Position numbers and translations under genes: made by a program. From an uncultured virus (IMG/VR IMGVR_UViG_3300010885_015975) (Duplodnaviria > Heunggongvirae > Uroviricota > Caudoviricetes), in IMG/VR virus record IMGVR_UViG_3300010885_015975: 64,000 nt of DNA; one strand, given 5' to 3'. This document shows positions 723-61,765 of the stretch, one piece after another. The number at the start of each line of letters is the position of its first letter. The first letter of the stretch is position 1. The notes beneath the pieces are model-generated. The model was not told the origin of the DNA and made no database searches. It saw nothing but the letters and a program-made list of their open reading frames with translations.

Positions 723-741
723 CTTTTAAAAATAAAATATC

Positions 742-984: not shown

Positions 985-986
985 TC

Positions 987-1142: not shown

Positions 1143-1143
1143 A

Positions 1144-1605
1144 ATGAAAAAGACTAATAAGGAAAACCCATTAACTTTTTTTAGAAAAGCAAATGAGGCT
1201 AGACAAAAGGTTGTAAAAAACTCTTTAACTAAAGCTAGAAATGGTATTGTTGTACCTGCTGTAGCAGATGCTATTCGTGAAGCTCGATACTATTCTATTA
1301 ATAAAGATGGTATATTAAATACAAATAATAGAAGTAATGTAGATACTGTGAACCAATCAATTCTTGATAAGACTCAATCTACATCTTCTGCTCCTAATAA
1401 TCCTAGAATGGATTATTTAGATAAACAAACTATTGTACAACAAGCTAGAGATAAATATAGTAATGCAAAAAAATCAGCTATGTCACAGGAAATGTACAAA
1501 ACTCAAATGGATTCTATAACTAATAAACCAAAGTCTAATACACCTATAATGGATAGTATTATTAAACAAAAAAAAGGTGGTTCTGTAAAGTCCAAAAAGA
1601 AATAA
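1144..1605 (+). CDS. Basic hypothetical protein with KARNG and QKKGG motifs
   Basis: 153 aa ORF, tightly packed; shares the motifs seen in the cargo proteins. Confidence 0.75.
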   Translation: MKKTNKENPLTFFRKANEARQKVVKNSLTKARNGIVVPAVADAIREARYYSINKDGILNTNNRSNVDTVNQSILDKTQSTSSAPNNPRMDYLDKQTIVQQARDKYSNAKKSAMSQEMYKTQMDSITNKPKSNTPIMDSIIKQKKGGSVKSKKK

Positions 1606-17300: not shown

Positions 17301-19863
17301 AGGTGCATTTATTAGTTATAATATAAATAACTTAAAGAGATCTGATGCTGTTGTAGTAAGAACTAAATCAGGTCCTTACTATAATGGGGCTTATCCAAAC
17401 GGTGTAACTATTGGTCCAAACTTAATTACAACAGGTGTAACAGATAAGTCATTAGTTACATTAGGAACAATAGTTCAAAATAGTAGTGACCCTGCTTTTA
17501 TAAGCACAAACCTACCTAATTTTGAAGAGGATTCAAAAACAAAACCTTTTAGTTTAACTATTGCTAGTCATTATGGTGGATTAAAAGGAAGAGTAAGAAA
17601 TCAATATGGACAAATAGGTAGTGAAAGTCAAATTACAATTACACCATGTGAACAGAAGTTACAAAATTATACTATAGCTGAACCAACATGGACATGTCCT
17701 ATTGATAATGTTTTTTACACTTTTAAAGTTATAGCAAGAACACCTATACTATTTGGTGGTGATACATATATAAATAGATACACTGAGAAAAACAATATGA
17801 TGTTTTTTTATGATTGGTTATATGGTCAACCAGATGGATTTGAATACAACTACTATTTGCACAGTATGATTCCTTTAACAAGATTTAAAGTGAATAGTAT
17901 AAGATATGATGTTAGTTATTTATCAGAAATATTTGATTTTAATGGTGCAGTTATACCAGGTACTGGTGCATATCCGGGTTCTTTTTATGTTCTTGATTAT
18001 TATGTAGATGCTATTAGAAAATATAACTATGCAACTGGTACTTCACAACCAGGTGGAGTATTCAGTGATAGATATATAGGTCTATGGACTGTGAATCAAG
18101 CATATTTTTATTTAGCTAATTCAGGTATTAGAGATTTCTTTGTAGAGTCTGAAGTACTTATTGACTTTAGAAAACAAAGTCCAATAGAAGGAGGTAAACA
18201 CTATGATCCGTATAGATATACAGATTACAGAGCAATGTTTAATATGAATCCTAATGTTATGGGAATGCTTAGTGAGTACATTTATGATTACTCATTAAGT
18301 GTATCCAAACTTTATAATCAGTATTTTTCTGCAGGAAGTGTACAAAGTAGATACTATGATCCAAATGTAGCTAAGTTATGTTATACTTATTATCCAGATA
18401 GAATTATTTATTCGTTGCCTCAACAAATAGAGGCAATTAAAGATAGTTGGTTTATATATTTAATAAATAATTATAAAGAATTTACAGGTCAGATCTCAGG
18501 TGTTAAATCAGTAAACAAAAGTGGTATCTTCATTACATTCAAAAATGAAAGCCCATTAATGTATCAAGGTACTGATACATTAGAAACTGATTTAGGTACT
18601 AAGCTTACTATTGGTGATGGTCTTTTGTTTAGTCAACCACAGCAGTCTGTAACTAATGCAGATAATGCATATGAATTTGGTTCTTCTCAAAATAGATTAT
18701 CAGTAATTAATACTCCTGTAGGGTTATTTTATATGTCTCAGAATCAAGGAAGAATTTTTACTTATGGTCAAGGTCTACAGGAAATTTCTCAATCTGGTTT
18801 GAAATGGTGGTTTGTATTGTACATGCCATATAAATTAACAGATGATTTTCCTGACTACCCATGGCAAGATAATCCAGTAGCCGGTATTGGTTGTCAATCT
18901 ACTTATGATAGTTCAAGCACTATCTTATACTTTAGTAAAAAAGATTATCAGTTAAAACCTATATTTAAAGGCAGAGTAGAGTATAGAGGTCTTAATCCAG
19001 ATGGTACAGGTGATGATTTTATAGTAGATGGTCAACAAAATTTAAGATTTAATTTAGGTGATCCTTATTTATTTGATGATGCTTCATGGACATTAAGCTA
19101 TGACCCTAAGAATCAATTCTTTATATCATTTCATGAATGGCATCCAGATTTATTAATTCCTACAAAAGATATTTTTATCAGTAGTAAAAAGAATACTTTA
19201 TGGAAACATAATTACATCTGTGATGGTTACTGCAATTATTATGGTACACAGTATGGATTTGAAATTGAATTTCCTGTTATAACTGGTCAATCTGTAATGA
19301 CAACTAGGTCTATTGAATATATACTAGAAGCATACAGAAGACGTGGTGATAGTTGTGTTGATCAACATCATGTACTAGATTATAACTTTGATAGAGCTGT
19401 AGTATATAATACAGAGCAAGTTTCCGGATATCTTAATCTTAACATCTATCCTAAAAATAATGTTAATCAATCTTTGCAGTATCCAAAATTAAATGCAAAC
19501 TTATCCTCTTATGATATTCTTTTCTCTAAAGAGGAGAACAAGTACAGGTTTAATCAGTTCTGGGATGTAACAAAACAAAGAGCAGAGTTTCCAATAGGAT
19601 CTAATTATCCACCAACAGGACCTGTTGTTCCAGGAACAACTGTTCTTCAAGGATCATATTCTTCACAGAATACATGGATAACTGGGCCAGATGGATTTAC
19701 TAGAGTATTAAATCCAAATAACTTGGATTATATTAAACCACAAATGCAAAGAAAGAAGTTTAGACATTATTTGAATTTTATCAATTTAAAAAAACATCAA
19801 GCTGATGATGTCAATGTAATATTTAAAATGTCTAATAGTAAAAATCAATTTTCTCCTAGGTAA
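14320..19863 (+). CDS. Tail stabilization / muzzle protein (P22 gp10-like, crAss type)
   Basis: 1847 aa; F.KGLNKD..P N-terminus, VYWADGFNPDR, YLRDEVY.F, FGGDTYINRY, WTLSYDP....FISFH.W.P motifs. Confidence 0.8.
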   Translation: MAKNQGLQDTGKITTNSFVKGLNKDSDPSFVTEGMWTHAINMVNNSIEGDIGTLSNEISNILCGTTGRTMPATVTDKYIIGAIYLYSDKWIVFTAGHGSTGKRLMSEIGLFEEDVCKYREIVQDSCLNFDKRYLISGSSRQKEDCSWQVYWADGFNPDRFLNVGDPQTWPTPDYAWLGGGASSMNYYSNGVNISFLWPGVAWTEKVAVVNNCDYVTLINTLDCPHIRLARLMKTPCLNLSIGQQGGTIANGTYFALIAYTIKGQKVTDYFSQSNFQFVYSVNDLEGSLTLDVSADYKNFDEFELVIVEATNQQTVASRIGLYSTTTTRIAIDQINPSLEKIPLEMLPIQTPVFETSDQITDVNNYLLKVGPRSKFDFNYQPLANMISARWASVEYPADYYMKGGNKTNYLRDEVYTFYIRWVYTTGDKSASYHIPGRAPRNFNVPGVGSIFETADLDVANSLATDDKVFEVYNTATQLPYPATVQNATLNASGQWVMDDGGVLLAIGEMGYWESSEIYPDNRPDIWNASEYCWTGSAAQVPPNSTVGPFDLCGQHIRQHKFPENFINNSTTTDALHFRPNSNITTSGQNYNIRLMGVVFENITLPKDQDGIDIPGIAGYEILRGSREGNKTIIAKGMVNNFRTFKPRGALAQNFTGLYANYPYNTIIPIGSTNSASNNNYLYNDPYIKNEPVNGTVVNQNIPTDIFTFHSPDTMFRTPFLSTTEFKVYGTLNGYANMAFQEPNGHPKWKLLSNAVVAAMMVGGVIETVIAMTGKRTYNMPQLAPYTEQYRGTGGVGAINLGASATGSGTFISGTSTPGSGGRIDDSVAQNTALGTIIRPAVNTYNAFVNNYYQSGQALADVFIGLAAGYENTFAANAQSALLGAVDLAGNDAGIVSLAVAGSIELPRYAYLDPISRGLGALNALAFYFAEGAELVLKTFYAFIQYQQFALQQVSHGFYGNMTSLSTTALSRFRIEDSFYIRDNVQEVPKYQTNTGAFISYNINNLKRSDAVVVRTKSGPYYNGAYPNGVTIGPNLITTGVTDKSLVTLGTIVQNSSDPAFISTNLPNFEEDSKTKPFSLTIASHYGGLKGRVRNQYGQIGSESQITITPCEQKLQNYTIAEPTWTCPIDNVFYTFKVIARTPILFGGDTYINRYTEKNNMMFFYDWLYGQPDGFEYNYYLHSMIPLTRFKVNSIRYDVSYLSEIFDFNGAVIPGTGAYPGSFYVLDYYVDAIRKYNYATGTSQPGGVFSDRYIGLWTVNQAYFYLANSGIRDFFVESEVLIDFRKQSPIEGGKHYDPYRYTDYRAMFNMNPNVMGMLSEYIYDYSLSVSKLYNQYFSAGSVQSRYYDPNVAKLCYTYYPDRIIYSLPQQIEAIKDSWFIYLINNYKEFTGQISGVKSVNKSGIFITFKNESPLMYQGTDTLETDLGTKLTIGDGLLFSQPQQSVTNADNAYEFGSSQNRLSVINTPVGLFYMSQNQGRIFTYGQGLQEISQSGLKWWFVLYMPYKLTDDFPDYPWQDNPVAGIGCQSTYDSSSTILYFSKKDYQLKPIFKGRVEYRGLNPDGTGDDFIVDGQQNLRFNLGDPYLFDDASWTLSYDPKNQFFISFHEWHPDLLIPTKDIFISSKKNTLWKHNYICDGYCNYYGTQYGFEIEFPVITGQSVMTTRSIEYILEAYRRRGDSCVDQHHVLDYNFDRAVVYNTEQVSGYLNLNIYPKNNVNQSLQYPKLNANLSSYDILFSKEENKYRFNQFWDVTKQRAEFPIGSNYPPTGPVVPGTTVLQGSYSSQNTWITGPDGFTRVLNPNNLDYIKPQMQRKKFRHYLNFINLKKHQADDVNVIFKMSNSKNQFSPR

Positions 19864-22800
19864 TGTATAATAAAAAAGTTCTTATAGATTCACTCAAAAA
19901 TCTTGGCAGTGCTAAAGCACCTGCTAAAAAACAAGATGTGTTGGTAGACCCTAGTGGAAATCCTTTGATGAGTAAAGGTGGTTTAAATGAGAAACCTTAC
20001 AAAAAAGTTAGTATACAAAAATCTAATATACAAGGTAAAGGTTTGTTTGCTGATGAACCAATCAGAGCTGGTGAGATAATTGGTCTTTCACATATTAAAT
20101 CATCTTTCCAAAAAGATGGTGAGACTTATTTAAAAAGTAAAGAGACTCCTGTAATAGGGAAATATTACAATCATTCTGATGATGCATACAATGCTGGTTC
20201 TATAATTCAAGGTAACAAAAGATATTTAAGAGCTCTTAAGAACATTCAACCGGGAGAAGAAATAGCAGGTAACTATTACGAAGATAACGACCCTACTTTA
20301 GAAACTCCAGATGATTTTAAAAAAGGTGGTTCTTTACCAAAGATGCCTAGAAAGAAAAACTCTAGAGGATACTCTAGAAGTTTAGAGGCTACAAATAAGT
20401 TCTTTACTGAAAATTCATTCTTTGCTAAACCTACGTCTAGAAAGAATAAAGTGTATGATCCTAATGCTAAGTACTATGAAGAGGGTGGTGCTTTACTTAC
20501 TAAAGAAGTAACATGTAAAAAGTGTAGTTGGGAATGGGATGCTGCAGATGGTGGTAAGGATATTACTACATGTCATAAATGTGGTGGTCAAGGATTAGTA
20601 CATGCACAAGATGGTGGAGAATCAGAATGTCCAGAAGGATACGTTATTTATAATGGTCAATGTGTAGAATGGCAAGAACCAGAAGTAATTGAAACTGATG
20701 AGAATACAGGATATAATGCAGCAACAGGTGAAATAAGTCAAGATACAAGACCTGGATCAATAGAAAATAATGGTTGGTGGACAGAACATGAAAAGTATCA
20801 CCATTTGCAAAACTTAGGAGGTGGTGCAAGTACTGCTGGTTTTTTAGGTCAAAGACCTAATAATACTGTAGCATCAGATCAAGCAATAGGTAATTACTAT
20901 GACAGAAGAAATACTGAATTAGAAGCCCAAACAGATGCAATGATCAAAGCTAATCCTAATTTACAATTTATACCAAGAAATAAATTACAAGAATTTACAG
21001 AAGGTTTTCCAGGTGCAAATGCTTTAATGTATCAAGATCCAACTACAGAAGAAGGAGAAGCAAGAGTTCGTGAAGAACAATTTGAAAAAGATGGTAAATC
21101 TATGTTTCCTAAAAAACAAGATGGTGGAGATTACATCGAAGCAGATCTTACACCAGAAGAAATTCAAGAATATGCTAAAGGTGGTTTTATTATAGAAGAT
21201 ATATCTGTTCCAGAACTGACTAAAGCTAGAGAAGGTTTACCAGTTCTTTTAAAAAGTTTAATATCTGTTGGTAAAACAGCAAGAAGACCTGCTTCTAGAA
21301 CTCTTATAACACCGCTTACTCAGCGTGGTGTTACTACTTATCTGCCACCTAATGAAAATAGTGTAGTAGATTTAAGAAATATACCAATTGATTTGGATGT
21401 AAAACAATTAAAATTTCCTTTGACAATAGCTGGTGATAGTGGTTACTTTTCAGTTTATCCTAATAATAAAGTAGAAGATAATATTTTTCATTTTGCAACT
21501 AAAATGACTAATCCTATGGAAGCAGGTAGAGCAATGAAATTAATTAATGATTCTTTTCCTCAAGCTTTTCCTTCTATATTAGAACCACATAGTTTAAGTT
21601 TAGATTCTTATAATCTATTGTTAAACATGGCAAAAAGAAAAGACTGGGATATGAATTTTGAAAATCATATTCCTTTAAATTTTGTATCTGAAAAGAGTAA
21701 GTTATTTGATGGTATAGAAGGTGTGCCAACAGGTTTTCGTACAGGAAGAGTCTTTAATCCAAAGATGTCTGCAGAAATGATTGACAGAATAAATGCAGAT
21801 TTGCTGGGTAGAGGTTTAATGGAAAAAGCATATTTTGAAAATGTTACTGGAGGAGATTGGGGAGAAATAAGAATACCAAATTATAAACTTACTAGAAAAT
21901 ATAATCTAGGTGGTATTGCAAAAGTTGCTTCTAAATTAACTCCTGGTAATGCATTAAGAGCTTTTTTATACAAAGGAGTTAATCCTGCTAATTATCGCAT
22001 AATAGAAAAATTTACAGGAATGCCGTCTGAGTTATATAAGAATACTTTTAGTAATGATAATAGAGCTTTTAGAACAGGTATGTCTTTAAAATATGGGGCA
22101 CCTGAATATCTATCTAAATTACTTAATAACTTAGATGTATCAAAATCACAGTGGGATAAATTTTCTGAAGCTGATAAAATAATGGCTATCAAAGATTATG
22201 ATCCAGAAATTATGATGCAACTTGAGGATATAGGTAAAAGAAGATTAGATGCATGGGCAGTTGGATTAAAGCTACCACAAGAATATAATACTCTTGAACA
22301 AATAGGTGATAACACTTACAAGATGTTAGGTCTTCAACATACTCCTCAATTTTTTGCTGAGAGAAAAAATGATATAATAGCTAATAGTTTTAAAGGTCAA
22401 GCATGGGATGGTAAAAGAGACATGTTAGTTGGATTAACAAAAGACTTTTATGATTTAAATCCACACCCTTTGCAAAAAATTAACTCTGGAGATAATCGTT
22501 GGGCTGATTTAAGAAGAAGTCAGATTGATGAATTCTTGGGTCAACCTGTTTATCATCATCCATGGATTCAAACATATAAAGTTGCAAAAAGTCCTGATCC
22601 AGAATTTACAGATGCTATATATGATAATGATTCATATGGTGTAAGAGGTGGTTATAGATGGGATGTCCGTGATACTCCAGAAGGTATGCAATGGAAAGCT
22701 TATGATAAATGGGATTTAAATCCTTTTGAAAAAAGAGGTTCTGCATTTATAAAACCTAGTTCACTTGCAAAAAAATATTTAAGTTCTACTTATTTTAAAC

Positions 22801-23003
22801 CATTACAAAATGTAGAAGCATTAAGTTTAGTAGGTGGTAAACCATTTAATATTGAAAATAATTTTTTAGTTGATCCTAAAACTTTTAAAACAGTTAAACA
22901 ATGGGAAGACGGAGGTTCTATTGATTATACACTTGGAGATGAGATAGATGAAGCTACTATGAAGAAGTTAGAAAAATTAGGTTATACGTTTGAAAAAATA
23001 TAG
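19863..23003 (+). CDS. Modular cargo protein: SET domain, Zn ribbon, zincin (HEKYH) and unknown modules
   Basis: GKGLFA / YYNHS / GEEI..NY (SET); CKKC...CHKC; HEKYH...EEGEAR; modules separated by xxxGG motifs. Confidence 0.75.
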   Translation: MYNKKVLIDSLKNLGSAKAPAKKQDVLVDPSGNPLMSKGGLNEKPYKKVSIQKSNIQGKGLFADEPIRAGEIIGLSHIKSSFQKDGETYLKSKETPVIGKYYNHSDDAYNAGSIIQGNKRYLRALKNIQPGEEIAGNYYEDNDPTLETPDDFKKGGSLPKMPRKKNSRGYSRSLEATNKFFTENSFFAKPTSRKNKVYDPNAKYYEEGGALLTKEVTCKKCSWEWDAADGGKDITTCHKCGGQGLVHAQDGGESECPEGYVIYNGQCVEWQEPEVIETDENTGYNAATGEISQDTRPGSIENNGWWTEHEKYHHLQNLGGGASTAGFLGQRPNNTVASDQAIGNYYDRRNTELEAQTDAMIKANPNLQFIPRNKLQEFTEGFPGANALMYQDPTTEEGEARVREEQFEKDGKSMFPKKQDGGDYIEADLTPEEIQEYAKGGFIIEDISVPELTKAREGLPVLLKSLISVGKTARRPASRTLITPLTQRGVTTYLPPNENSVVDLRNIPIDLDVKQLKFPLTIAGDSGYFSVYPNNKVEDNIFHFATKMTNPMEAGRAMKLINDSFPQAFPSILEPHSLSLDSYNLLLNMAKRKDWDMNFENHIPLNFVSEKSKLFDGIEGVPTGFRTGRVFNPKMSAEMIDRINADLLGRGLMEKAYFENVTGGDWGEIRIPNYKLTRKYNLGGIAKVASKLTPGNALRAFLYKGVNPANYRIIEKFTGMPSELYKNTFSNDNRAFRTGMSLKYGAPEYLSKLLNNLDVSKSQWDKFSEADKIMAIKDYDPEIMMQLEDIGKRRLDAWAVGLKLPQEYNTLEQIGDNTYKMLGLQHTPQFFAERKNDIIANSFKGQAWDGKRDMLVGLTKDFYDLNPHPLQKINSGDNRWADLRRSQIDEFLGQPVYHHPWIQTYKVAKSPDPEFTDAIYDNDSYGVRGGYRWDVRDTPEGMQWKAYDKWDLNPFEKRGSAFIKPSSLAKKYLSSTYFKPLQNVEALSLVGGKPFNIENNFLVDPKTFKTVKQWEDGGSIDYTLGDEIDEATMKKLEKLGYTFEKI

Positions 23004-23005
23004 TA

Positions 23006-26000
23006 ATGGCAAAGTACAGAATAACAAGTATTCCACAAGCTAAAAAAGGTAAGATTGTTGAATCAGACAATACTCCTATGGTAGAAGTACAAGGTGTACA
23101 ACAACCATCATATTGGAATGAATCATTGCCAGGTTATATGAAGGGTCAAGGATGTCCTCCAGGTAAATATGATTTTAATGGAGAATGTTTAACTGAATCA
23201 GAATATATTGCTGCTTCTAATGCAGAACAAGAAGCCTGGAAAGTTAAACTGGATGCTAGAAAAATAGCTTTAGTTAAAGACATAAATGATATACGTAGTA
23301 AAACAAATGATGAACGTGCTCAATGGCAAGCTGATCATACTAATAGATATCTTGAAACATTTGCTAAATCTAAGAAACAAGATAAAATAGAGCCTTATAA
23401 AAAATTTCCTGAATCTGAAGTTACACCAGAACTAGAAGCTGAATTAAAAAATAATTTTCTTGTTCATAAGAAAGATGGATTTGTAGAAGTGTATCCTTTA
23501 AACTTAGTTCAAGATAGGATTATTAAAAATGGTTTTCAAGCAGATCAATTTAAAAACTACTGGGGATTAGATCCTGAACAAGTAAAAGAACAACTTGGGG
23601 ATTTAATGGCAGCAGCTAAAGCTAACTATGAAGCAGAGGTAACTCAGAACATACTTACAAAAGCTATTCAGCAAGGTAAACCTGTAGATCAAGTTATTAA
23701 AGGACTCTCTCCTAAATTAGGGGAACAATCTAATTTAAAAGCCACATTTGAAAAACCTACAAATAAAATAATAGATGATGCTTTTTCTGAACTTTATAAT
23801 AATATAGATTCTATACCTGGTTCAGATGCATCTAAAGTTGAGCAGGATCGTAAAATTTTCTTAGAATCAAGTGATCCAATGGATGCTTGGGAAAGAAAAT
23901 ATCACAGTGGTCCAAATAATTTAGGAGACTTTCTTACTTATCAATCTAAAAAAATTGATAGAGGTAATAAAGCTTATTCAGATTGGATGGATAAGTATGG
24001 AAAATCAGGTCAGTATGATGGACTTACTTTTGCAAAAGATGATGCTATGGCTAATGTTAGAAATACTAACATGTTAAGGAATCAAAATCTTAATCAAAAG
24101 AATGCATCAGCTGCTGCAAACACTGCTAAAGCTGAAGACTTTAACAATGCTTTTGGAGAATATGCTTCTAATTTAGGAATGGATACAACAAAACAAGTTC
24201 TTAAACAAGCATTAGATGCAGCTGGTTCTAATTCTAAAGCTAAACTAGAAATATTAAAATCATTTCAAGAGAATCCTAATGATGCAATGCAAAAATTATT
24301 AGGACAAAAAACTGGTAATAAAAAGCAAACATATAATGACGTATTAAATGAGAGGGTAAATACTTTATTTACACTTAATCAGAATCGTGATACAATGAAG
24401 CAAGGAACTGGTATTAATGAAAATACTACAGGTTCTAAAATAAAAGATGTACTAACTAATCCTTTTGATGCAGCATATTTTGCAATGAATCCTCGTGAAG
24501 AAATGTGGGGAAATAGTAATTTATCTTATGATACAAGAAAAGATATTCAAAATGAAACTGGTGTTGATATGGGGCTTATGCCAAATGATAATCCTCTTTC
24601 TATAGTTAGAGATTATACTATGCTTCAGGCTGCAAATCCTTTTAAGATTGGAAGTAATTTAAGAAAGGGTTATGATAAAGGAGAATTTTTAAGTGCTGCA
24701 GGAGATGAATTAATTGACATAGGTACAAAAAGAGGTATCATGAAAGGCACAAATGCATTACTTTCAGGACAAGGATTCAAACAAGGATTACAAGCATTTA
24801 ATAGTCCTTTTTTTAATGCTGGATTTATGGCAAAGTTACCAGAAAATATATCTGGTGCATATGATAATTTCCAACAAGGTAACTATGGAAGTGCTGCTTT
24901 AGATGCACTTGAAGGTTACTGGGGAGCAGCTCCTCTTATAAGGGGTATAAAACCTGCCGTAGGTACATTACAAACATTAAACTCATTACGTACTCCTGGT
25001 ACTGTAGCAGTTAATAGTTTACCTTCTAGATTTACAGGTATGTACAATGCAGCTACTCCAGGTTCAGGTCTTGTTCTTGGTAATCCAAATATTACTGGAG
25101 CAAAGCCTATATATGAATCTATAACTAATCCTTTAAACAAAGCAAGTAAAAGATTAGGTTTAGGAGAATTTTCTGTATTAGAGCAAAATCCAAAAGGTTA
25201 TCTTGGAACAGGTAATTACCCATTACTTGGTTATTCAGATGGTGGTTTAGTTAAAGGTAGAACCGGTTTAATTGTTAAAGGATTACAAGCTTTAGGTAAA
25301 AACCCTTTAAATGCTATTCCTTTTTTTAATAATACATATAAAATTAATCCTTGGGCAGAAAAATTAAATAATTTAAATAAATCCTATAGAGTAGCAGGAA
25401 TGGATGCTTATAAAGATTTTATTAATACAGGAATATTAAGAAGTAATAATACAGCACCTGCACAATTAGTTAAAGGTACAAATTTTATGTTACCTCCAAG
25501 ACCTACATCATTTCCATCATTTCAAAAAGGATATGCTGATATGTCATATGCAAAACCAGAAGGATCTGTTGTTTTTGAAACAGCATTGCCTACATTTAAA
25601 AGAGGTGAAATAAATCCAGTAACAGGATTTCCTATTAAAGGAAGACATTATGCACATAGAGTTATAGATCCTGAAACTGGTAATGCATTACGTGAAATTC
25701 CTGCATCTGACATAAGAGTATTTGGAGATAAACCACATTGGTTAAAAGGATATCAAGAAGTTCCTAAACAATATATTAGTGGTGGAACAACTAATAATTA
25801 TGTAGAATTAGATTTAACTTCAGAAGAAAGAAAAGATGGTGGTCTTGTAAAAGCTAACTTAGGAAGAATAGTTAAAACAGGAAGTGATCTCAGTAAGTTA
25901 TTAAAATCAACTCCTGAATTTAGAAGTACACTATCTGGTTTAGATGACTTAGGAAATCTTCCTAGTCATATACCAAATATGAGAAACGTTTCAAAACCTT

Positions 26001-27043
26001 TGATGAATAGCGTTCAACAATCTATACATAAGTTACCACTTATGGATTCTCATACTATTGATTTAACACATTCACCTACTGACTTAGGGGGTACTTCTTT
26101 AATAAAATTTGGTGATGAACCTCATCCTGGTGATGAATGGTACAATATTGATCCTGCAGATTATCAAGGTTTGGATTGGAAAAAAGAAGGTTTAAAAAAT
26201 GCTAATGATTCTCTTAATAAATACATGTCAGGTCTTCCTCAATATGGAAAAGATTTATTTAATGGAGTAGGTGATTTTGATTTTAAAGATTTCTCAGATG
26301 GTTGGGCAGCACGTCAAGCTATGATGAACATGGGTACAGATCCTCAATGGGTACCAGGTAAAAATGACTTCTATACAGAAAATGAATTAACGGATCTTGT
26401 AAATCAACAAAGTGATTGGCAAGCAGCAAGAAATGCATTTGATGATATAGAACCTGAAAATCCAGCTATGGCTATGTTTAATGCATTTAGTGGTGATAAC
26501 AGTAGAGAAGAATTATTTTCTACCTTATTTCCTAATGCATCTATGCCAAATTTTAGAAGTAAGTTTACAACACCAAGTCAAGAAGCTTTGTTACAACAAC
26601 ATTTACCTTGGCAAGATTCAGTAAGAAATCAAGGAATGTTAAACCCTAATAGTTTAAAAAATGTAAATGGAATAGGAGATACATTACCACGTACTTATCA
26701 GGATTTGTTAAAAGCACAAAAAGATAATTATTTAACTACAGCTCCTGCTAAAGATGTTGTTATGGAAATGAGAGGTGGTCTTGGTTTAAAAATGGAAGAT
26801 ATACAAAATGCTACACCAGAACAACTTGAAAAATGGAGAAAACAAATTGTTAAGAAAATGAATACACAGGCCCGTGATAGATGGGATAAAGAGACAGCAA
26901 ACCCATTTACAGGAGGTAATGCCTTTAAACAAATTAGTGATGTACCTGGTTGGAAAAATAAAAAAGGTGGGGTTGTAACTAGTCTATCTAGAAAAGAAAT
27001 TGATCAGTATATTAAAGATGGTTATATCATTGAAGATGAGTAA
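23006..27043 (+). CDS. Modular cargo protein with a putative ADP-ribosyltransferase-like module
   Basis: 1345 aa; helical N-terminal half; module YRVAG..AYKDF..TG..R / PSF / VFE / HWLKGY bounded by GG motifs. Confidence 0.6.
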   Translation: MAKYRITSIPQAKKGKIVESDNTPMVEVQGVQQPSYWNESLPGYMKGQGCPPGKYDFNGECLTESEYIAASNAEQEAWKVKLDARKIALVKDINDIRSKTNDERAQWQADHTNRYLETFAKSKKQDKIEPYKKFPESEVTPELEAELKNNFLVHKKDGFVEVYPLNLVQDRIIKNGFQADQFKNYWGLDPEQVKEQLGDLMAAAKANYEAEVTQNILTKAIQQGKPVDQVIKGLSPKLGEQSNLKATFEKPTNKIIDDAFSELYNNIDSIPGSDASKVEQDRKIFLESSDPMDAWERKYHSGPNNLGDFLTYQSKKIDRGNKAYSDWMDKYGKSGQYDGLTFAKDDAMANVRNTNMLRNQNLNQKNASAAANTAKAEDFNNAFGEYASNLGMDTTKQVLKQALDAAGSNSKAKLEILKSFQENPNDAMQKLLGQKTGNKKQTYNDVLNERVNTLFTLNQNRDTMKQGTGINENTTGSKIKDVLTNPFDAAYFAMNPREEMWGNSNLSYDTRKDIQNETGVDMGLMPNDNPLSIVRDYTMLQAANPFKIGSNLRKGYDKGEFLSAAGDELIDIGTKRGIMKGTNALLSGQGFKQGLQAFNSPFFNAGFMAKLPENISGAYDNFQQGNYGSAALDALEGYWGAAPLIRGIKPAVGTLQTLNSLRTPGTVAVNSLPSRFTGMYNAATPGSGLVLGNPNITGAKPIYESITNPLNKASKRLGLGEFSVLEQNPKGYLGTGNYPLLGYSDGGLVKGRTGLIVKGLQALGKNPLNAIPFFNNTYKINPWAEKLNNLNKSYRVAGMDAYKDFINTGILRSNNTAPAQLVKGTNFMLPPRPTSFPSFQKGYADMSYAKPEGSVVFETALPTFKRGEINPVTGFPIKGRHYAHRVIDPETGNALREIPASDIRVFGDKPHWLKGYQEVPKQYISGGTTNNYVELDLTSEERKDGGLVKANLGRIVKTGSDLSKLLKSTPEFRSTLSGLDDLGNLPSHIPNMRNVSKPLMNSVQQSIHKLPLMDSHTIDLTHSPTDLGGTSLIKFGDEPHPGDEWYNIDPADYQGLDWKKEGLKNANDSLNKYMSGLPQYGKDLFNGVGDFDFKDFSDGWAARQAMMNMGTDPQWVPGKNDFYTENELTDLVNQQSDWQAARNAFDDIEPENPAMAMFNAFSGDNSREELFSTLFPNASMPNFRSKFTTPSQEALLQQHLPWQDSVRNQGMLNPNSLKNVNGIGDTLPRTYQDLLKAQKDNYLTTAPAKDVVMEMRGGLGLKMEDIQNATPEQLEKWRKQIVKKMNTQARDRWDKETANPFTGGNAFKQISDVPGWKNKKGGVVTSLSRKEIDQYIKDGYIIEDE

Positions 27044-27086
27044 ACTTTTAAAGTGTATTCATTAAATTAAAATTTAGTATATTTAT
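27041..27086 (+). promoter_or_regulatory. 17-bp imperfect palindrome plus late motif
   Basis: TAAACTTTTAAAGTGTA, with TTTAGTATATTTA starting 32 nt after the palindrome start; same layout at 34771. Confidence 0.55.
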
Positions 27087-27100
27087 ATATATAACACGTT

Positions 27101-30100
27101 ATGAAGAAGCAAGTAAGAATTAGAAAAGCACTTCCAGGAGAAACTCCAGGGTACTATAACAAAACTGCTAAGTTTTTAGAGAAAGCAGCTATGGGTATGG
27201 AAGTTGGAGCTCCAAGTATGGATTCGGCTAAACTAAATCAAATATATGATCAGGTTTATATATCATTAAAAAATGATGCAACACCTGATATTTTATATAA
27301 TCAACTTATTAATGAGTATGCATTAGATGAGAATACATCAGTGATGCTTATTAAATCTGCTATGTCTAAACTTGCTGAGGAAGGTTATGTAGATCCTGAA
27401 GTAGTTAAAGATAAAACTGAACCAGAACAAGGAGTTGATCCACAACAACAAATAGATGAGGATAATGAAAGAGCAGCTTCAGATGCAGAGCAAGAAGAAC
27501 TAGCAATTTCTGATGGTGGTCTATATGATGAGGAAGATGCACAGATGAATCAGAATTCTGCTTTAGAAATGACACAGGATGAAGAGGAAAGTGCTTTTAA
27601 ATATGGTGGTTACTTTGATGATGGTGGTGAGTATCCTGAATTTGATGATATGAATCCTAATAAACAGATAAGTGAAGAACAAGCTGTAATAAATCAGTAT
27701 GGTACACCGGGAAGAACATCTGAAGAAAAACCTTTCTCTATGGAAGACTTAATTGCTATGACACCAGGTGCACAAGAGATACAAGAATTTCCAGATTTAG
27801 CATCTTATTTAGGTGACTACAGAAGTGCATCTGATTCTTATCAACCTCAAGATTATTTACCACGAGCACGAACTGGTTTGCAAGTTCCTAAATCAGCACT
27901 TCAAAAATTAGCTGAGTATATCCCAACTATAGGATATGCTAATAAAGCTAATCCTTTATCTAATATATCTACTCTACGTAAAGCTTTACCTGTATTTACT
28001 GGTATTGGTGATGCAATGACTAGGTTACCTTATGTAGGAGGAAAGTTTGCTCCAAAATTAGCTACTCCATTTACACAGAATAGAACTGAACTTTGGAATG
28101 TTATTAATGGAGCTGCTCCAAAAACAGGAGTGTTTAGTCAGAACGGAACATATGCTGGTGGAACTGATGGTAGTTTACAAGCAGATAGATTAGTATTAGA
28201 CCAAGAAGATGTTAAACGTATAATTGGAAAATTAGAATACGGTACTAATGAACCTTTTACATTAGAACATTACGGTAATATGTCTAACCAAGAAGGTTTA
28301 ATTAGTGGTGTATATCCACCGCAAACAAAAGTTATTGGTGGTGTGGATGATGCAGGTAATAAATTTTTTGAATTTAAACATACTTTTGGTCCTAATCAAA
28401 GTTTACCTTTTGGTACAACTCCTCCAAAAGCTAAAGAGGTTACATTTAAAAATAGATTTTATTACAATCAAGATCCTCAGACAGGTGATTTAAGTGTATT
28501 TGATCCGTTAGGTAATCCATTAACAATGGGTACTCAAACAAAATCAAGAGTAAATAGACCAATAGGAACGTCAATAGCACGTGCTTGGGGAGATATGGTA
28601 TTGAGAGATAATGAACGTACTCCATTTCCAAATGTTTTTGATGGTGCAAAAGGTTTTAAACTTGAAGAACTAACAGGTTTACCTCCAAATACATGGGATA
28701 CTTTAAGTAATAGAGGAAAACTTGGTAGAACTTTAGAAACATATGGTACTACAGGATTAAACCAATTATTTAGAACTGGTGCAAAAGGAGTTGAATCTGT
28801 TGATTATCCTGTATATGGTTATTCAAACATGGCTCTTGGACCAAATATGCAAGATCCTGCTGCTATACCTTATTCACAAACAGCATCTGATATTAAGAAT
28901 GCTATTAACTATAAGTATAGATTAGGTTTAAAGACTACACTTATTGGTGGTGGTTTAGGTTATCTAGGGTATCAAACATATGATGCATTAGCAAATCCAT
29001 GTCAATGTGAGGATCCTAATTTACCAAACTTCCAACCTAAAAATGCTCTTGGTAAATGTACATGTGGAACTGATGTAGGGCCAAGTAGAGTTTTAGATCC
29101 TACACCTATTCAAGAAGATACACTAATGTATCCAAATTCATTACAGATACCTGATAGTATGAAGTTTTTAAAAGGAAAAACTCCAAGTGATTATAATTAC
29201 TATAGGTATCAAGATCCAAATGTTGTAAATCCAAATACACAAAATCAAGTGTTGCCTGATGATTTTGCAAAAGGTGGTGTTTCTAAAAATAGATTTATTG
29301 ATAGAATGGTTTCAATGTATGCTGAAGGTGGAGATGCAGCTTTTGGTCAAGGTAAAAGAAAAGACACTTTGACAAATGATGTTGCTAACATGAAATCTTC
29401 TTTTATAAGTACATTAAAAAATAATTCTAATAAAGCAATATCAAAAGATATTTATGAGAATGCACAGAATAATCCAAAGATATTAAACATGTTAATGAAA
29501 GATGGATTCAAAGAAAATCTTGCAGAAGAGGAACCTATGAATACAGATTTTACAGCAGCTTTTGGAGGGTTTGTAGATATGGATGCTGAAGAACCACTAA
29601 CTAAATTTATTTACGGTGGAGATGAAGAAGAATATTATGAACCATACGGTCTAGAACAAGCAAGAGATGGTATTACTATTACCAACAGAGCTGGAGAGTC
29701 AAGAGGTATGCAAGATAAAATGAATTATCAAGAATGGGCAGATAGTGAAATATTAAATAGAAAAAGTGAAAGAGAAGATTGGGAAGCTGCTAATCCAGAT
29801 GGAGACTATGACGCTGATGTTAATTTAGATAGTAGAACATATGATGATTATCAGAATTTTTATGATGACGCATTAAATGATTATACTAATGAAGGTGCAG
29901 AGGAAAAAGTAACTAATGGTAATTGTCCAGCAGGATATACATGGAATGGATCTGCTTGTGTATTAAACTCAAGTGCAAGCTTGCAACCAAAGAAAACTCA
30001 GTGTGGTCCTGGTACTGTTTGGAATGAACAATATAAAATGTGCATTCCTATAGCAAAAATGAATTATAATTATACTCAAGTTAGAAATCCAGGTGGTTAT

Positions 30101-31381
30101 GGACGTAACTTAATACCATGGAATCCTATATTTCAGTCAGCTGGCTCTTGGGTTAAACAAAAAAAATCTCCATATTATTTAAATGATGGTAGATCTTATA
30201 ACGGTCTTATTCCAGATAAACCTGTTGCTAGTTATACTACTAAAAAAGGTTTATTAGGTGGTAGAAAAAAATGGATTGATATCTATCAGGTTGATGGTAA
30301 TGGTAATGCTACTGGAGTTCCTATGGGTGATTTAACACAACTTGAAGGTATGTTAGATAACCGTGGTAGAAAAAATATGAAAATGCCTTCAGTAAAAAGT
30401 AATACTCCAAAAGAAAGTCCTAACAAAGAAAGTAGAAGAGATCGTTTAGAAGATCAAGCAAAAGAAAGATTTCAATTTAGTGATCAAGAATGGGATGAAC
30501 AAACTAAACGTGGTCAAAGAAATCTAAGACAAGCTGAGAGATATGAACAAGGACGTGGTGCTAGATATAACATTGATCAAGCTTACTATGGTGCTAAAAA
30601 TGCAGTTGACAATGTAAAGGATTCATATGGTAAAGTTAAAAGTTTAGTTGATAAAATTAAAAATCCTTCTTTTAAAAGAATGGGTGGTGCTTTTGAAGTT
30701 GGTACAGGTTTTGGTATAGGAGCTGGTCAGAATCAATCTGGTTATAATCCTTATTCACAACAATCACAATTTGAAAATAATATGTTTGGTACAGGAGCAC
30801 CAAATAACATGCCTCAACAACAAAACCCATTTAATTTTATAACTCCTACTGGAACAGGTTCTTATGCTGAAACTGCAAATACAGGTAACACAGTAGGTAA
30901 TCAAGGACAAGAAATTATTCCACAAGCACCTACACCTGCACCTGAACCTAATCAAAACCAGTATGTTGGTGTAGAAAGACAACGTAAAACTGCTAGAAAT
31001 TTTGATGGTGAAGCAGGGGTTAATGCTTTTAATGCTTTAGCTAATGGTGCATTAGGAATGTTTGAAAGAGCAAAGAATGCACCTATAGAGAATAACATGT
31101 TATTAGACACGTTTGATCCTATGAATAATGTAGTGGCTTCTAATCTAACAGACACGGGAGATCATGTGGATTTTGGTTCCAAGACAGGTATGTATAGATA
31201 TGATCAAATGGGATCAGACAGAAACAGTAGAGCAACATTTGGTAATTTTGCAAATAGCAATGCTGCTCAATATGGTGGTTACATGCAAGATGGTGGTTAC
31301 ATGGATGATGAAGAAGTATATATGACTCCAGAAGAATTAGAACAATTCTTAGCAGCAGGAGGACAAGTTGAATATTTATAA
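27101..31381 (+). CDS. Modular, partly low-complexity cargo protein with many GG motifs
   Basis: 1426 aa; acidic linkers, FKYGG/FAKGG/YAEGG/FIYGG/AQYGG/MQDGG motifs, one hydrophobic segment TTLIGGGLGYLGY. Confidence 0.7.
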   Translation: MKKQVRIRKALPGETPGYYNKTAKFLEKAAMGMEVGAPSMDSAKLNQIYDQVYISLKNDATPDILYNQLINEYALDENTSVMLIKSAMSKLAEEGYVDPEVVKDKTEPEQGVDPQQQIDEDNERAASDAEQEELAISDGGLYDEEDAQMNQNSALEMTQDEEESAFKYGGYFDDGGEYPEFDDMNPNKQISEEQAVINQYGTPGRTSEEKPFSMEDLIAMTPGAQEIQEFPDLASYLGDYRSASDSYQPQDYLPRARTGLQVPKSALQKLAEYIPTIGYANKANPLSNISTLRKALPVFTGIGDAMTRLPYVGGKFAPKLATPFTQNRTELWNVINGAAPKTGVFSQNGTYAGGTDGSLQADRLVLDQEDVKRIIGKLEYGTNEPFTLEHYGNMSNQEGLISGVYPPQTKVIGGVDDAGNKFFEFKHTFGPNQSLPFGTTPPKAKEVTFKNRFYYNQDPQTGDLSVFDPLGNPLTMGTQTKSRVNRPIGTSIARAWGDMVLRDNERTPFPNVFDGAKGFKLEELTGLPPNTWDTLSNRGKLGRTLETYGTTGLNQLFRTGAKGVESVDYPVYGYSNMALGPNMQDPAAIPYSQTASDIKNAINYKYRLGLKTTLIGGGLGYLGYQTYDALANPCQCEDPNLPNFQPKNALGKCTCGTDVGPSRVLDPTPIQEDTLMYPNSLQIPDSMKFLKGKTPSDYNYYRYQDPNVVNPNTQNQVLPDDFAKGGVSKNRFIDRMVSMYAEGGDAAFGQGKRKDTLTNDVANMKSSFISTLKNNSNKAISKDIYENAQNNPKILNMLMKDGFKENLAEEEPMNTDFTAAFGGFVDMDAEEPLTKFIYGGDEEEYYEPYGLEQARDGITITNRAGESRGMQDKMNYQEWADSEILNRKSEREDWEAANPDGDYDADVNLDSRTYDDYQNFYDDALNDYTNEGAEEKVTNGNCPAGYTWNGSACVLNSSASLQPKKTQCGPGTVWNEQYKMCIPIAKMNYNYTQVRNPGGYGRNLIPWNPIFQSAGSWVKQKKSPYYLNDGRSYNGLIPDKPVASYTTKKGLLGGRKKWIDIYQVDGNGNATGVPMGDLTQLEGMLDNRGRKNMKMPSVKSNTPKESPNKESRRDRLEDQAKERFQFSDQEWDEQTKRGQRNLRQAERYEQGRGARYNIDQAYYGAKNAVDNVKDSYGKVKSLVDKIKNPSFKRMGGAFEVGTGFGIGAGQNQSGYNPYSQQSQFENNMFGTGAPNNMPQQQNPFNFITPTGTGSYAETANTGNTVGNQGQEIIPQAPTPAPEPNQNQYVGVERQRKTARNFDGEAGVNAFNALANGALGMFERAKNAPIENNMLLDTFDPMNNVVASNLTDTGDHVDFGSKTGMYRYDQMGSDRNSRATFGNFANSNAAQYGGYMQDGGYMDDEEVYMTPEELEQFLAAGGQVEYL

Positions 31382-31389
31382 ATAACCCG

Positions 31390-34300
31390 ATGATAAAAGT
31401 TAGAATTAAGAAATTACCTCAAGCAAAAACAGGATATCAAGTCCAAGGTGCTTTAGTAAATGATGTTCCAGCAATGGGTGGAGCAGACTATAATGCTTAT
31501 ATAGGAAAGCCTAAACTTATAGCTAGTAAGTATATTACTGCTGTACCAAGAGATGAAGCTAACTTAGAAGCAGAAGGTGGTGAAACTGTATACGGGGACA
31601 TCAACGGTGATGGATTAGCAGAACATCAATTCATAAAAGGACCAAGACATAGTGCTGGTGGTGTACCATTAAGTTTACCAGAAGATACTTTTATTTTCAG
31701 TGATACGAGAGGTATGATGATAAAAGATCCTAATGTACTTGCTATGTTTGGTAAAACAGGTAAGGGTAAATCTTTTACTCCTGCAGAACTTGCTAAACAA
31801 TATGATATTCAGAAATACAGAAAAATCTTAGAAGATCCTGATACTGATGCTATAGAAAGAAAGTCTGCTGAATTAATGATGAAAAAATATGTTATTAAGT
31901 TAGGATGTTTAGCTTTAGCACAAGAATCAATGAAAGGTTTCCCTCAAGGAATTCCTGCTGTTGCTAAACCTTGTATGGATGCTAGAGGTCTTACAGAAGA
32001 ACAGATCTTACCATCTAAAGAGATTAGTGTATTGAATGACCAGTTGAAGAAACAAATGAAACAACAGGAAAATTCAGATCAGACTATGGAATCAGAGAAT
32101 GAGCAAAATCAAATGATGCAAGCTCAAGAAATGAATCAAGGTCAACCAGTTGCACAAGCTCAAGAACAACCAATGTCTCAACAAGAAATGATGATGATGT
32201 ATGGTGGTGGTATGAGAAGATTAAGAAGGGCTGCAGAAGGTATGCAACAACCATCTCCTGAAGAAATGGCAATGATGGAACAACAAGCACAAGCTCAACA
32301 AGGTCAACAAGGTCCTCAAGGTGGTGGTCAAGATGAGATGATGCAGATTATACAAGAAGTTCAAGGTGCTTTACAAAGAGGTGCTGAACCTGCTCAAGTT
32401 GTTATGAGTCTATTACAAAATGGTCTTCCACCTGAAGCTATAGTACAAGTATTTACACAAATGGGTGTAGCTCAAGAAGAGGCAGTAGGTCTTATTCAAG
32501 AAGTTATGTCCCAAGCTCAAGGTGGACAAGAACAAGCAATGAGTCAACAACCTCCTATGGAAGAAGAACAAATGGCACCACCAATGGCTGCTTATGGAAT
32601 GTCTATGGGTGGTTATGATATGCCTTTCTATGATATGCCAGAAGCAGAGTATGGTATGTCAATGGGTACAGGTATATCTCAAAACTATCAAGGAAGACCT
32701 AAAAGAATTCCTGCATCTGGTCCTATAACACGTATGGTTAAAGCTAGAGATGGTATTGAAGTTAAACGTGCTGATTATAAAACTGATGCTGAATTTCAAC
32801 AAGCATTAAGAAGAGCTTATGTTCAATCAGGAAGAGGTAAAGAAAAAATTTATGTTATACAACCTGATGGTAAAAAAGTAGAACAAAAAGTTTCTGCAAC
32901 AGGTTATGATAAATACTCAGGTTCTGATTTAGATAAGTGGAATGGTAATCAAGTTGCTGCTGCTACATATGAAGCACTAACACAAACATTTAATGATCCA
33001 AAAGCTAAAGCTACATTTGCAAAACAAGTAAGAAATACTTTAACAGACCAACAAGCATACAAAGGTAAAAGTGGTGCTTTTTCTAAAACTTATCAACAAA
33101 GATTTGGTAAAGATCCAAGTCAATTAAGTGATGATGAAATTGTAAATAAGTATCTTAGGATGCAAGAACGTAACTTGAAAACTACAACTTATAAAGATAA
33201 GTTAGGTATTCCTCTTTATGGTTCTTGGATGTATAAGGATAATAATGGTGACTTAAGAGGCTTTGAAAGTTCTGGTGATGCAAAAGGAGATAGAAGAGGT
33301 TTTAAAGATGTTGTGAAAGAAGCTAATCCCAATTTAACAGATAGTGAAGTTCAAGACATGTATAATAAAATTAAAACTGCAGGTTTTACATCTCTTCAAT
33401 CAGTTTCTCAAGACATGGGTTTACCTATGAATAGAAAAACTGGAAGTGGTTCTGCAGATTCACCTTATGATGAGGAAGCATACATACAACAAGCAGGTTT
33501 TATTGCAGCAGATAGATTAATGAAAGATCTTGATGCAAATCCTGGTAACTATGATGAAGACACACAAATGTCATTGTTAGGTATTACAAGCTTTGCTGGA
33601 TTTACTCCTTATGGAAAACAAACAGGATATAATGATGAAACAGGTCAAGCTGTTACTAACATATCTCCTATTGATGCCTATTATACAAACACTACACAAG
33701 ATCAAAAACAAGCTATTCATGGATTAAAATTTGAAGATATACCTGGAGAAGAACCTTGTCAATGTCTTGATCCAAATAAACCTAATTATAAACCAAATGA
33801 TGCTCAAGGAAATTGTACATGTAATCCAGTTCCAAAAAAATGTCCATGTCAAAAAGCTGATGGTACTGTAATAGAGATGACTGTTGATGTAAATGGTAAT
33901 TGTCCTCCTTGTACAGAAGATCAAGATATTCCTGTACCAGGTGAACCTCCTGGAATGTGGTTACAAGATACTATCAAAACTACAGGAGCATTTGGAGATC
34001 TAATGGGTCTTAAGAAAAGAATGCCAGCTGCTTTTAATGTATCATTGGGTGTACCAAGACCTACATTTGTAGATCCTACAAGAGAACTTGGTGCTAATGG
34101 TGAACAAGCAGCTATTCAGACAAATGCTTTAGCACAGTTTGCTGGACCTCAAGGTTTAAGATCATCAGGTGTTCAGGGTTCTGCTGCTAAAAATGCTGCT
34201 GACATATTAGCTAAGTATAATAATTCTAATGTTAATATTGCTAATCAATTTGAATTAAAAGCAAATGATATTATAAATCAAAATAGTATGTTAAGACAAG

Positions 34301-34773
34301 CAACTAATCAAAGATTGTATGATCAAAATACTATTGCTAATCAACAGTTTGATAATGCTAAATTAGCAATGAGAAACAATGTTAGAAACTATTATACTCA
34401 AGGTATTACTAATAAGTGGAAAACAGATGCATTAAATCAAATGTATCCTAACTATGCAGTTAATGCACCTTCTGGTGGACGTATGGATTTTAAACCTACT
34501 CCTAAAACAGTTGATGGTAGAGGTGCTAGTAGTGCTATGACAATGCAAGAAGCAATGGATTGGTGTAAACAAAACAATCCTAATGCAACAGATCATTCAG
34601 CATGTATGTCAAGAGTTATGAATTCACAAAGTAAGCCAGGTAGAAGTGGTGTACCAGATCCAAATATAATAAACAGTGTATATGGATCACAACAACAGAC
34701 AAAAAAAGGTGGTTCAGTACGTGACAACAGTGGTTATATTGATATTAGTTCATGGCTACCATTTTTACTATAA
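31390..34773 (+). CDS. crAss-like cargo protein 1-type ejection protein
   Basis: ANLEAEGGETV...GPRHSAGGVP....DTFIFSD domain resembles the conserved crAss-like cargo motif; Q/M-rich linker; N/Q/A-rich coiled C-terminal part. Confidence 0.65.
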   Translation: MIKVRIKKLPQAKTGYQVQGALVNDVPAMGGADYNAYIGKPKLIASKYITAVPRDEANLEAEGGETVYGDINGDGLAEHQFIKGPRHSAGGVPLSLPEDTFIFSDTRGMMIKDPNVLAMFGKTGKGKSFTPAELAKQYDIQKYRKILEDPDTDAIERKSAELMMKKYVIKLGCLALAQESMKGFPQGIPAVAKPCMDARGLTEEQILPSKEISVLNDQLKKQMKQQENSDQTMESENEQNQMMQAQEMNQGQPVAQAQEQPMSQQEMMMMYGGGMRRLRRAAEGMQQPSPEEMAMMEQQAQAQQGQQGPQGGGQDEMMQIIQEVQGALQRGAEPAQVVMSLLQNGLPPEAIVQVFTQMGVAQEEAVGLIQEVMSQAQGGQEQAMSQQPPMEEEQMAPPMAAYGMSMGGYDMPFYDMPEAEYGMSMGTGISQNYQGRPKRIPASGPITRMVKARDGIEVKRADYKTDAEFQQALRRAYVQSGRGKEKIYVIQPDGKKVEQKVSATGYDKYSGSDLDKWNGNQVAAATYEALTQTFNDPKAKATFAKQVRNTLTDQQAYKGKSGAFSKTYQQRFGKDPSQLSDDEIVNKYLRMQERNLKTTTYKDKLGIPLYGSWMYKDNNGDLRGFESSGDAKGDRRGFKDVVKEANPNLTDSEVQDMYNKIKTAGFTSLQSVSQDMGLPMNRKTGSGSADSPYDEEAYIQQAGFIAADRLMKDLDANPGNYDEDTQMSLLGITSFAGFTPYGKQTGYNDETGQAVTNISPIDAYYTNTTQDQKQAIHGLKFEDIPGEEPCQCLDPNKPNYKPNDAQGNCTCNPVPKKCPCQKADGTVIEMTVDVNGNCPPCTEDQDIPVPGEPPGMWLQDTIKTTGAFGDLMGLKKRMPAAFNVSLGVPRPTFVDPTRELGANGEQAAIQTNALAQFAGPQGLRSSGVQGSAAKNAADILAKYNNSNVNIANQFELKANDIINQNSMLRQATNQRLYDQNTIANQQFDNAKLAMRNNVRNYYTQGITNKWKTDALNQMYPNYAVNAPSGGRMDFKPTPKTVDGRGASSAMTMQEAMDWCKQNNPNATDHSACMSRVMNSQSKPGRSGVPDPNIINSVYGSQQQTKKGGSVRDNSGYIDISSWLPFLL

Positions 34774-61686: not shown

Positions 61687-61765
61687 CTTCTTTTATTGCT
61701 ACTAGTTTATATTTAGATAAATCAACACCTTGTCTTGTTAATGATGCTTCTATATCATCTTCCAT
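61667..61765 (-). CDS. Possible 32-aa peptide (missing from ORF track)
   Basis: MEDDIEASLTRQGVDLSKYKLVAIKEDEQSND; ATG overlaps the upstream stop (TAATG) and fills the gap. Confidence 0.45.
   Translation of the reverse strand: MEDDIEASLTRQGVDLSKYKLVAIKEDEQSND

Follow-up and report, generated by a model that had tools for sequence, protein, structure and literature searches.

The window, a 64,000-nucleotide stretch of DNA from an uncultured virus (IMG/VR record IMGVR_UViG_3300010885_015975), contained the structural block of a crAss-like phage, with two crAss ring proteins and a muzzle protein identified by Pfam. Four long open reading frames (ORFs), named A to D and encoding 1046–1426 aa, were located between the muzzle gene and a conserved 1060-aa ORF in the C2 slot, which was followed by the RNA polymerase (RNAP) genes. 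This is the position of the cargo protein C1 (gp45) in crAss001. A short glycine motif, which recurred along the four ORFs and mostly lay between their modules, is the subject of this analysis. The features of the locus were as follows.

14320..19863, plus strand, muzzle protein (Pfam crAss_MUZ, E 4e-22), which fixes the locus as a crassvirus cargo slot
19863..23003, plus strand, cargo ORF A, 1046 aa, modules between motif sites and an acidic tail module
19980..20315, plus strand, SET module between MSKGG (19968) and FKKGG (20316)
20490..20612, plus strand, small Cys4 zinc-ribbon-like module with CxxC pairs, from YEEGG to AQDGG
20619..21113, plus strand, zincin-like module (family M20), HEKYH at ~20787, from AQDGG to KQDGG
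21129..21197, plus strand, internal copy of the acidic tail module, containing YAKGG (21171)
22917..23000, plus strand, acidic tail module at the C-terminus of ORF A, following WEDGG (22902)
23006..27043, plus strand, cargo ORF B, 1345 aa, basic head with AKKG, conserved body, swappable modules, acidic tail after NKKGG (26957)
25247..25771, plus strand, ART-fold-like module between YSDGG (25232) and YISGG (25772) (model pLDDT 77.5)
25844..26956, plus strand, module M18, which ends ORF B here and opens ORF A in the relative G006
27101..31381, plus strand, cargo ORF C, 1426 aa, 11 listed sites and an acidic tail
31390..34773, plus strand, cargo ORF D, 1127 aa, basic head with AKTG, then a domain at ~31510–31990
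34830..38012, plus strand, conserved ORF in the C2 slot (by synteny only), used as a motif-free control

Relatives were collected as IMG/VR contigs; 22 were found and 5 near-duplicates were removed, which left 17 in addition to the window. The four ORFs resembled crAss001 C1 in their slot after the muzzle gene and in the bracketing of small modules by the motif (gp45; Bayfield et al. 2023, PMC10172136). In crAss001, however, C1 is one 842-aa gene, whereas four genes with enzyme-like modules were found here. By analogy with the crAss001 and phi14:2 relatives, the four ORFs are probably packaged in the virion. In phi14:2, gp080 and gp081 are virion proteins, the latter annotated as structural from tandem mass spectrometry. 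The N-terminal part of gp081 was portal-domain-like, and an xxxGG stood ahead of each of its two zincin modules, one of which matched a module of ORF A from the relative G005 (34%, E 4e-9). When the ORF D domain at ~31510–31990 was compared with the portal-bound domain of gp45 by hhalign, a weak similarity was obtained (probability 50%, pairwise E 1.6e-4, 69 columns); BLASTP and hidden Markov model (HMM) searches gave nothing between the two, and their C-terminal regions were unaligned. No match was obtained when ORF D was searched directly against the PDB and annotated phages, nor with HMMs of ORFs C and D and of the C2-slot ORF against named C1 and C2 proteins, gp46 among them.

The initial annotation had described the four ORFs as punctuated by xxxGG and AxxG peptides, and these ORFs and all 29 of its pentapeptides were recovered at their positions. 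The two forms can be read as one motif, hydrophobic/Ala-[AKQ]-x-Gly, written [FYM/A]-[AKQ]-x-G(-G). Plain GG was rejected as a signal, with 51 occurrences in the window and 39.1 ± 6.1 (maximum 57) in 100 shuffles, which was not significant; enrichment over the shuffled background was confined to the residues upstream of the glycines. In the four cargo ORFs, [FYM]xxGG occurred 16 times against 4.6 in shuffles (maximum 10), and [KQR]AxxG 17 times against 5.4 (maximum 11). Neither pattern was enriched in the four giant downstream ORFs, the control that had been proposed with the motif ([FYM]xxGG, 1 against 3.1; [KQR]AxxG, 5 against 5.5).

Enrichment in the relatives was counted in 15 genomes, with the two closest excluded; the patterns had been written after inspection of the window and loci L001–L007, and 3 of the 15 genomes were not truly held out. 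The 53 cargo ORFs contained 126 copies of [FYM][AKQ]xGG (10.7 in shuffles) and the 95 small basic ORFs contained 77 (3.4), as compared with 2 in 45 C2 and RNAP ORFs (4.9) and 4 in 201 other structural ORFs (7.3); homologous copies are not independent of one another. The pattern was absent from all scaffold (11), capsid (14), and portal (10) sequences. A tandem form, GG-x-LPKAQ-x-G, was frequent in the relatives (24 against 0.1 in shuffles). Two sets collected later behaved in the same way: seven named Crassvirales C1 proteins contained 27 copies of [FYM]xxGG against 5.9 expected (13 control proteins, 9 against 5.0), and 120 long proteins, retrieved by way of the ART-like module, contained 239 copies of [FYM][AKQ]xGG against 21, distributed over 99 of the 120. 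The motif was present in C1 of crAss001 (gp45), crAssphage, and phi14:2, and spanned Steigviridae and Intestiviridae. It was confined to cargo-slot and small basic ORFs and was widespread across Crassvirales. No description of it was found in the literature searched, outside which most subscription papers lay.

Most sites were retained in aligned relatives, though to different degrees. The sites at 31420 and 31283 were kept in 17 and 16 of 17 sequences, and those at 22902 and 26957 in 7 of 7 each, while neither 25772 nor 25829 was retained in any of the three sequences compared at each, in alignments that were poor or shifted there. The motif was conserved as protein; all four glycine codons were in use, no DNA repeat family was present, and third-position identity at the motif was 0.53 both within and between genomes. 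A DNA-level recombination site was rejected, given the lack of a repeat family and the free synonymous change.

The modules between the sites were identified to different degrees. The SET module named in the initial annotation was confirmed by Pfam (PF00856, E 9e-9), and it occurred at differing positions among relatives (family M9). The zinc ribbon was weaker, with visible CxxC pairs and a PF08792 match (E 8e-4) under the curated cut-off, and the zincin assignment rested on HEKYH and on HExxH in related modules, with no Pfam match. The proposed ART-like module had no Foldseek match at E ≤ 0.001, but most of the listed structural matches of its model were ART-fold chains, the best with Z 5.9 and an r.m.s.d. 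of 3.4 over 88 aligned residues. The ESM Atlas lead was Tox-ART-HYD1 at 0.86, and PF18760 (ART-PolyVal) was listed in 5 of 120 homologues.

The motif lay between those domains that were identified, and gain or loss of modules at the motif in related genomes, which the initial annotation had suggested looking for, was observed. Homology breakpoints among cargo ORFs fell within 10 aa of a motif in 119 of 399 cases, as compared with 10% expected at random. In ORF B, the conserved body and a GG-LVK-x-x-x-G junction were constant and were followed by differing modules: the ART-like module and M18 in the window, M19 in L001, M15 in L002, and M19 with M18 in L007. The module at 27878–29263 of ORF C (M8) was present in 8 of 19 ORF C sequences and absent from the others. 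The idea of a swappable set of effectors thus held in that modules do swap, although some module borders had no motif and the site at 21171 probably has a structural role instead. As an aid to annotation, the motif offers an easy way to divide thousands of unannotated phage proteins of 1000–2000 aa into modules.

Two further features of ORF B were observed. A hydrophobic Gly/Ala-rich stretch at ~24600–25000 lay right before the variable modules and is reminiscent of the pre-toxin regions of polymorphic toxins. In the relative G002, ORF B stopped early and the acidic tail was encoded by a separate 58-aa ORF downstream (L012 10508–13099; G002 85245), which may reflect a gene that is broken or has been split, or else a faulty assembly.

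A conserved acidic module ended ORFs A, B, and C, and a basic strand started ORFs B, C, and D. Tails and heads of consecutive ORFs possibly bind each other, given this arrangement; a complex prediction for the tail of ORF C with the head of ORF D scored 0.19, below the mark of 0.32. Within 65 cargo ORFs, the acidic module was present internally 13 times, including the copy at 21129..21197. The YAKGG peptide (21171) lay at the helix end of this module. It is probably a structural helix cap and not a junction, because the C-terminal copies carry x-G at the same place (KLGY, KDGY).

The motif was also found outside the region of the initial annotation, in small basic ORFs (742–984 and 1144–1605) of the following cluster.

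450..1605, plus strand, cluster of small Lys-rich ORFs: DUF6321 at 450–722, and ORFs at 742–984, 987–1142, and 1144–1605

Among small basic ORFs of this kind, 48 of 105 carried the motif. A variable cluster of small Lys-rich ORFs stood after the capsid gene block (window 450–1605; L011 2323–4916), and the modules of these ORFs were fused in T4-like cyanophages and stood alone in pelagiphages and T7-like cyanophages. This distribution suggests a pool of internal DNA-binding proteins common to these phages.

The DUF6321 protein (450–722) had relatives in 528 phage records, and its surroundings differed among phage groups. In T4-like cyanophages it lay at the end of, or within, long proteins made of the same small modules. 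When the residues in front of DUF6321 were compared, the domain started at Met in 8 stand-alone ORFs (seven crAss-like, one pelagiphage), had MxxGG before it in all three fused crAss-like copies, and had Glu within 2–4 residues before it in all seven fused T4-like cyanophage copies. For the three module types common to both groups, GG was found within 14 aa upstream in 4 of 6 crAss-like and 0 of 14 T4-like fused copies, and the remaining two crAss-like copies had FRKGG just beyond 14 aa. The pooled table of eight module types gave 15 of 20 against 0 of 17. Conversely, an x-x-Glu pattern preceded 11 of the 14 T4-like and none of the 6 crAss-like copies of the common types. The [FYM]xxGG pattern did not occur in the 5709 aa of the T4-like set. 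The crAss-like junctions ended in Gly and were not Glu sites of the T4 gp21 type; xE preceded 0 of 20 fused crAss-like modules. The Gly motif thus occupies the position at which other phages have an initiator Met or a site of the prohead-protease type. This module comparison is the most informative evidence, and it favours cleavage.

Three known systems were compared with this arrangement. The T4 gp21 protease cuts at L/I-X-E, and giant-phage propeptides carry redundant sites, according to PMC9026906. Processing by such prohead proteases (L/I-X-E, S/A-X-E) resembles the present case in its short, degenerate, redundant sites and its internal head protein substrates, and T4-like cyanophages have x-x-Glu at the joints of these same small basic modules. 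It differs in that Gly instead of Glu would occupy P1 here, that scaffold and capsid carry no site, and that no prohead protease family was found in 64 ORFs of G002. The cargo ORFs also had the properties of polyvalent proteins (Iyer et al. 2017, PMC5512222), being large and multi-domain with shuffled conflict-type domains and zincins. In the available text, those proteins are described as large and virion-delivered, with shuffled domains including zincin and ART, and processing by zincins is proposed; no junction consensus appears in that text, whereas a defined motif marks many joints here. By analogy, the motif system may work like the protease processing of internal head proteins combined with polyvalent proteins.

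The adenovirus protease and pS273R of African swine fever virus (ASFV) process core polyproteins at Gly-Gly, and their substrates are internal, partly basic virion precursors. In the present motif, the hydrophobic residue is one position further from GG than in the adenovirus consensus, no such cysteine protease was found by Pfam in the window or G002, and the virus lineages are unrelated. The parallel drawn in the initial annotation is therefore retained as an analogy only, with no adenain/Ulp1-type protease in the 64 G002 ORFs and with scaffold, capsid, and portal free of the motif.

A search for a maturation protease elsewhere in the genome had also been proposed there. No Gly-Gly-type or prohead family was found by Pfam in the window or in the 64 non-cargo ORFs of G002 (96% complete), where a divergent protease could still be encoded, and the only peptidase families were a vWA-linked putative metallopeptidase and an amidase. 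Two zincin motifs were located downstream of the cargo genes.

47739..47753, plus strand, zincin HEAWH in the virion RNAP ORF 45411–55379, candidate protease
55999..56013, plus strand, second zincin HEFSH in ORF 55381–61320, present in 3 of 3 sequences

The HExxH of the RNAP protein was kept in all 14 sequences that reached it, with the window included, and two fragments were too short. Its counterpart in crAss001 gp47 was HEAFH, and crAssphage gp45 was annotated as fused to a zincin. ORF 45411 carried the polymerase-type motif DFDID, as described in 10.1101/2020.03.07.982082. A processing role for such zincins, either inside the head or following injection, has been put forward in that paper (Drobysheva et al.) and in PMC5512222 (Iyer et al.).

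Two other candidates for the enzyme were rejected. The conserved post-capsid protein (crAss001 gp33 slot) had no conserved catalytic residue, including Cys and His, in 87 sequences. Its model (L011 1289–2308; pLDDT 88.9) resembled SAP and RecA C-terminal domains in the C-terminal half, with a RecA-C-terminal-like match (Z 6.7, r.m.s.d. 1.8, 61 aligned) and SAP/CARD-like rows, and it gave no Foldseek match at E ≤ 0.001 and no protease fold, the N-terminal half being barely tested and having no clear match. A pair of neighbouring genes for a ThiF-like and a metalloprotease-domain protein was annotated in crAss001 (L091 28395–30793) but not seen in G002, and is thus no enzyme common to both.

Published data on crAss001 virions were then compared with the motif positions. 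In Bayfield et al. 2023 (PMC10172136), gp45 (842 aa, 91 kDa) is modelled in 12 segments, with residues 214–245 in the tail and 425–552 on the portal, and these two segments lie on opposite sides of the portal. The C2 and RNAP proteins are described there as packaged. Words beginning with cleav-, proteas-, or proteoly- did not occur in the main text of that paper. The motif glycines of gp45 are at 209, 263, 332, 373, 427, 562, and 828, and both numbered segments end before the next motif, at 245 before 263 and at 552 before 562. Cuts at all these sites would yield pieces of about 21.5, 6, 7.5, 4.4, 6.1, 15.1, 28.9, and 1.6 kDa. The MALDI peak lists of 13 virion gel bands (Shkoporov et al., PMC6235969) were matched again to 31 crAss001 proteins, with band sizes inferred and not taken from the gel image. 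Portal, fibres, RNAP proteins, capsid, and others were recovered in size order, the 12-copy portal with 10 peaks against 1.3 for decoys. The gp45 protein was not above decoy in any of these 13 bands (0–5 peaks against 0–3.4).

The motif would be the recognition site of a phage protease that cuts the cargo apart, a reading to which we give slightly better than an even chance. The site would have a hydrophobic residue or Ala at P4, Ala, Lys, or Gln at P3, and Gly at P1, with the cut presumably after the first Gly. The four ORFs would then be an expanded, gene-split form of crassvirus C1, loaded into the prohead as long precursors. The first domain of ORF D may tether them to the portal, and pairing of acidic tails with matching basic heads may link them into a chain. 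Cutting late in maturation or during ejection would release small units (SET, zincin-like, ART-like, and others) able to pass the narrow tail, and the enzyme would most likely be the zincin domain on the co-packaged RNAP proteins. Because a motif-flanked module would be released intact, modules could be gained, lost, and moved at the joints. What was claimed initially has accordingly stood in part: these are cargo-slot proteins of a crAss-like phage in which an enriched motif lies between domains and marks module gain and loss, and cleavage itself keeps the strength just given.

Several observations weigh against cleavage. No Gly-Gly-type family, including clan CE of the adenain/Ulp1 type, was found in the 64 G002 ORFs or the window, and the scaffold, a substrate in T4, carried no motif. 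In 11 of the 48 motif-bearing small ORFs no more than 10 aa separated the last motif from the C-terminus, so that little would be freed by cleavage. Among the 120 long homologues, the motif followed the ART-like module in only 40 (21 expected) and preceded it in 18. The x-x-Glu pattern is broad, was chosen after the data had been seen, and has a background of 18% of 15-mers, and cyanophage cutting at x-x-Glu would itself be an extrapolation from T4, with no cyanophage processing study among the literature titles searched. In the published description of the crAss001 particle, the portal-bound segment 425–552 starts with AFGG (425–428) and has a second GG inside (434–435); the model of the mature particle thus contains a junction copy intact, which is evidence against cleavage at that point. 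In the 13 gel bands, no GG-terminated gp45 peptide was found, and the motif-free control gp46 was likewise not clearly detected (best 4 peaks against 1.5 for decoys). With this control also missing, the missing gp45 band is weak support for cleavage at best. Cutting after ejection would fit the uncut site in the virion model and the comparative evidence, and would not fit the missing band.

The ordered AFGG with which the portal-bound gp45 segment begins is also what would be expected of an uncut multivalent binding tag that, in the manner of a repeated capsid-targeting sequence, sorts proteins into the head through a capsid, portal, or scaffold surface; the position of the tags in flexible linkers would then account for the exchange of modules at them. 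Tandem copies 6 aa apart, copies near the C-termini of small basic ORFs, and the lack of a matching protease family in Pfam searches of G002 and the window agree with such a tag. However, the C2 and RNAP proteins, packaged in crAss001, are motif-free, the motif is also missing from many of the small basic ORFs (present in 48 of 105), and the equivalent position in T4-like phages holds a protease-type site. We regard a tag as rather unlikely. Still less probable is an inert role for the motif as a linker or fusion scar, a short common sequence that promotes recombination and is tolerated in the protein. Exchange of modules at the motif, the ~39 nt of similar DNA that GG-x-LPKAQ-x-G junctions provide, and internal acidic tail modules resembling gene-fusion scars would be explained in this way, but synonymous codons vary freely (0.53 within and between genomes) with no repeat family, the sites at 31420 and 31283 are kept in 16–17 of 17 genomes in ORFs of unshuffled order, and the motif persists across Steigviridae and Intestiviridae.

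Protease recognition can be extended to a wider proposal, which is offered tentatively as a possibility. Crassvirales, including crAssphage, would use an undescribed Gly-directed code: cargo precursors, anchored at the portal and chained end to end, would be divided by an RNAP-borne zincin into effector modules and modules that bind DNA, a task for which T4-like phages would use their Glu-specific prohead protease on the same modules. Cargo modules passing from one phage order to another would, on this view, adopt whichever cleavage code is local. Should the joints be cut, the published ejection picture, in which one gp45 chain is threaded through the portal partly unfolded, would give way to a set of fragments that are separate from one another, and an undescribed protease-and-site system would be added to the most abundant gut phage group.

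Other observations concerned the neighbouring genes. A Dps-like protein (DUF5856) was present in the head–tail block (window 2315–2833; L011 5621–6238), and a ferritin-family protein was found instead in G002. A GIY-YIG homing endonuclease-like ORF of 211–213 aa was inserted between ORF D and the C2-slot gene in two relatives (G010 near 37084; G011 near 21688), where it shared the N-terminal MATYLQ with the C2-slot gene. The giant ORF at 38018–45409 had a weak Cas4-like nuclease match (PHROG, E 0.003), and that at 55381–61320 contained a LysM domain (Pfam, E 7e-6). The minus-strand ORFs at 61765–63826 started where the GC skew flipped sign, which marked the end of the late operon.

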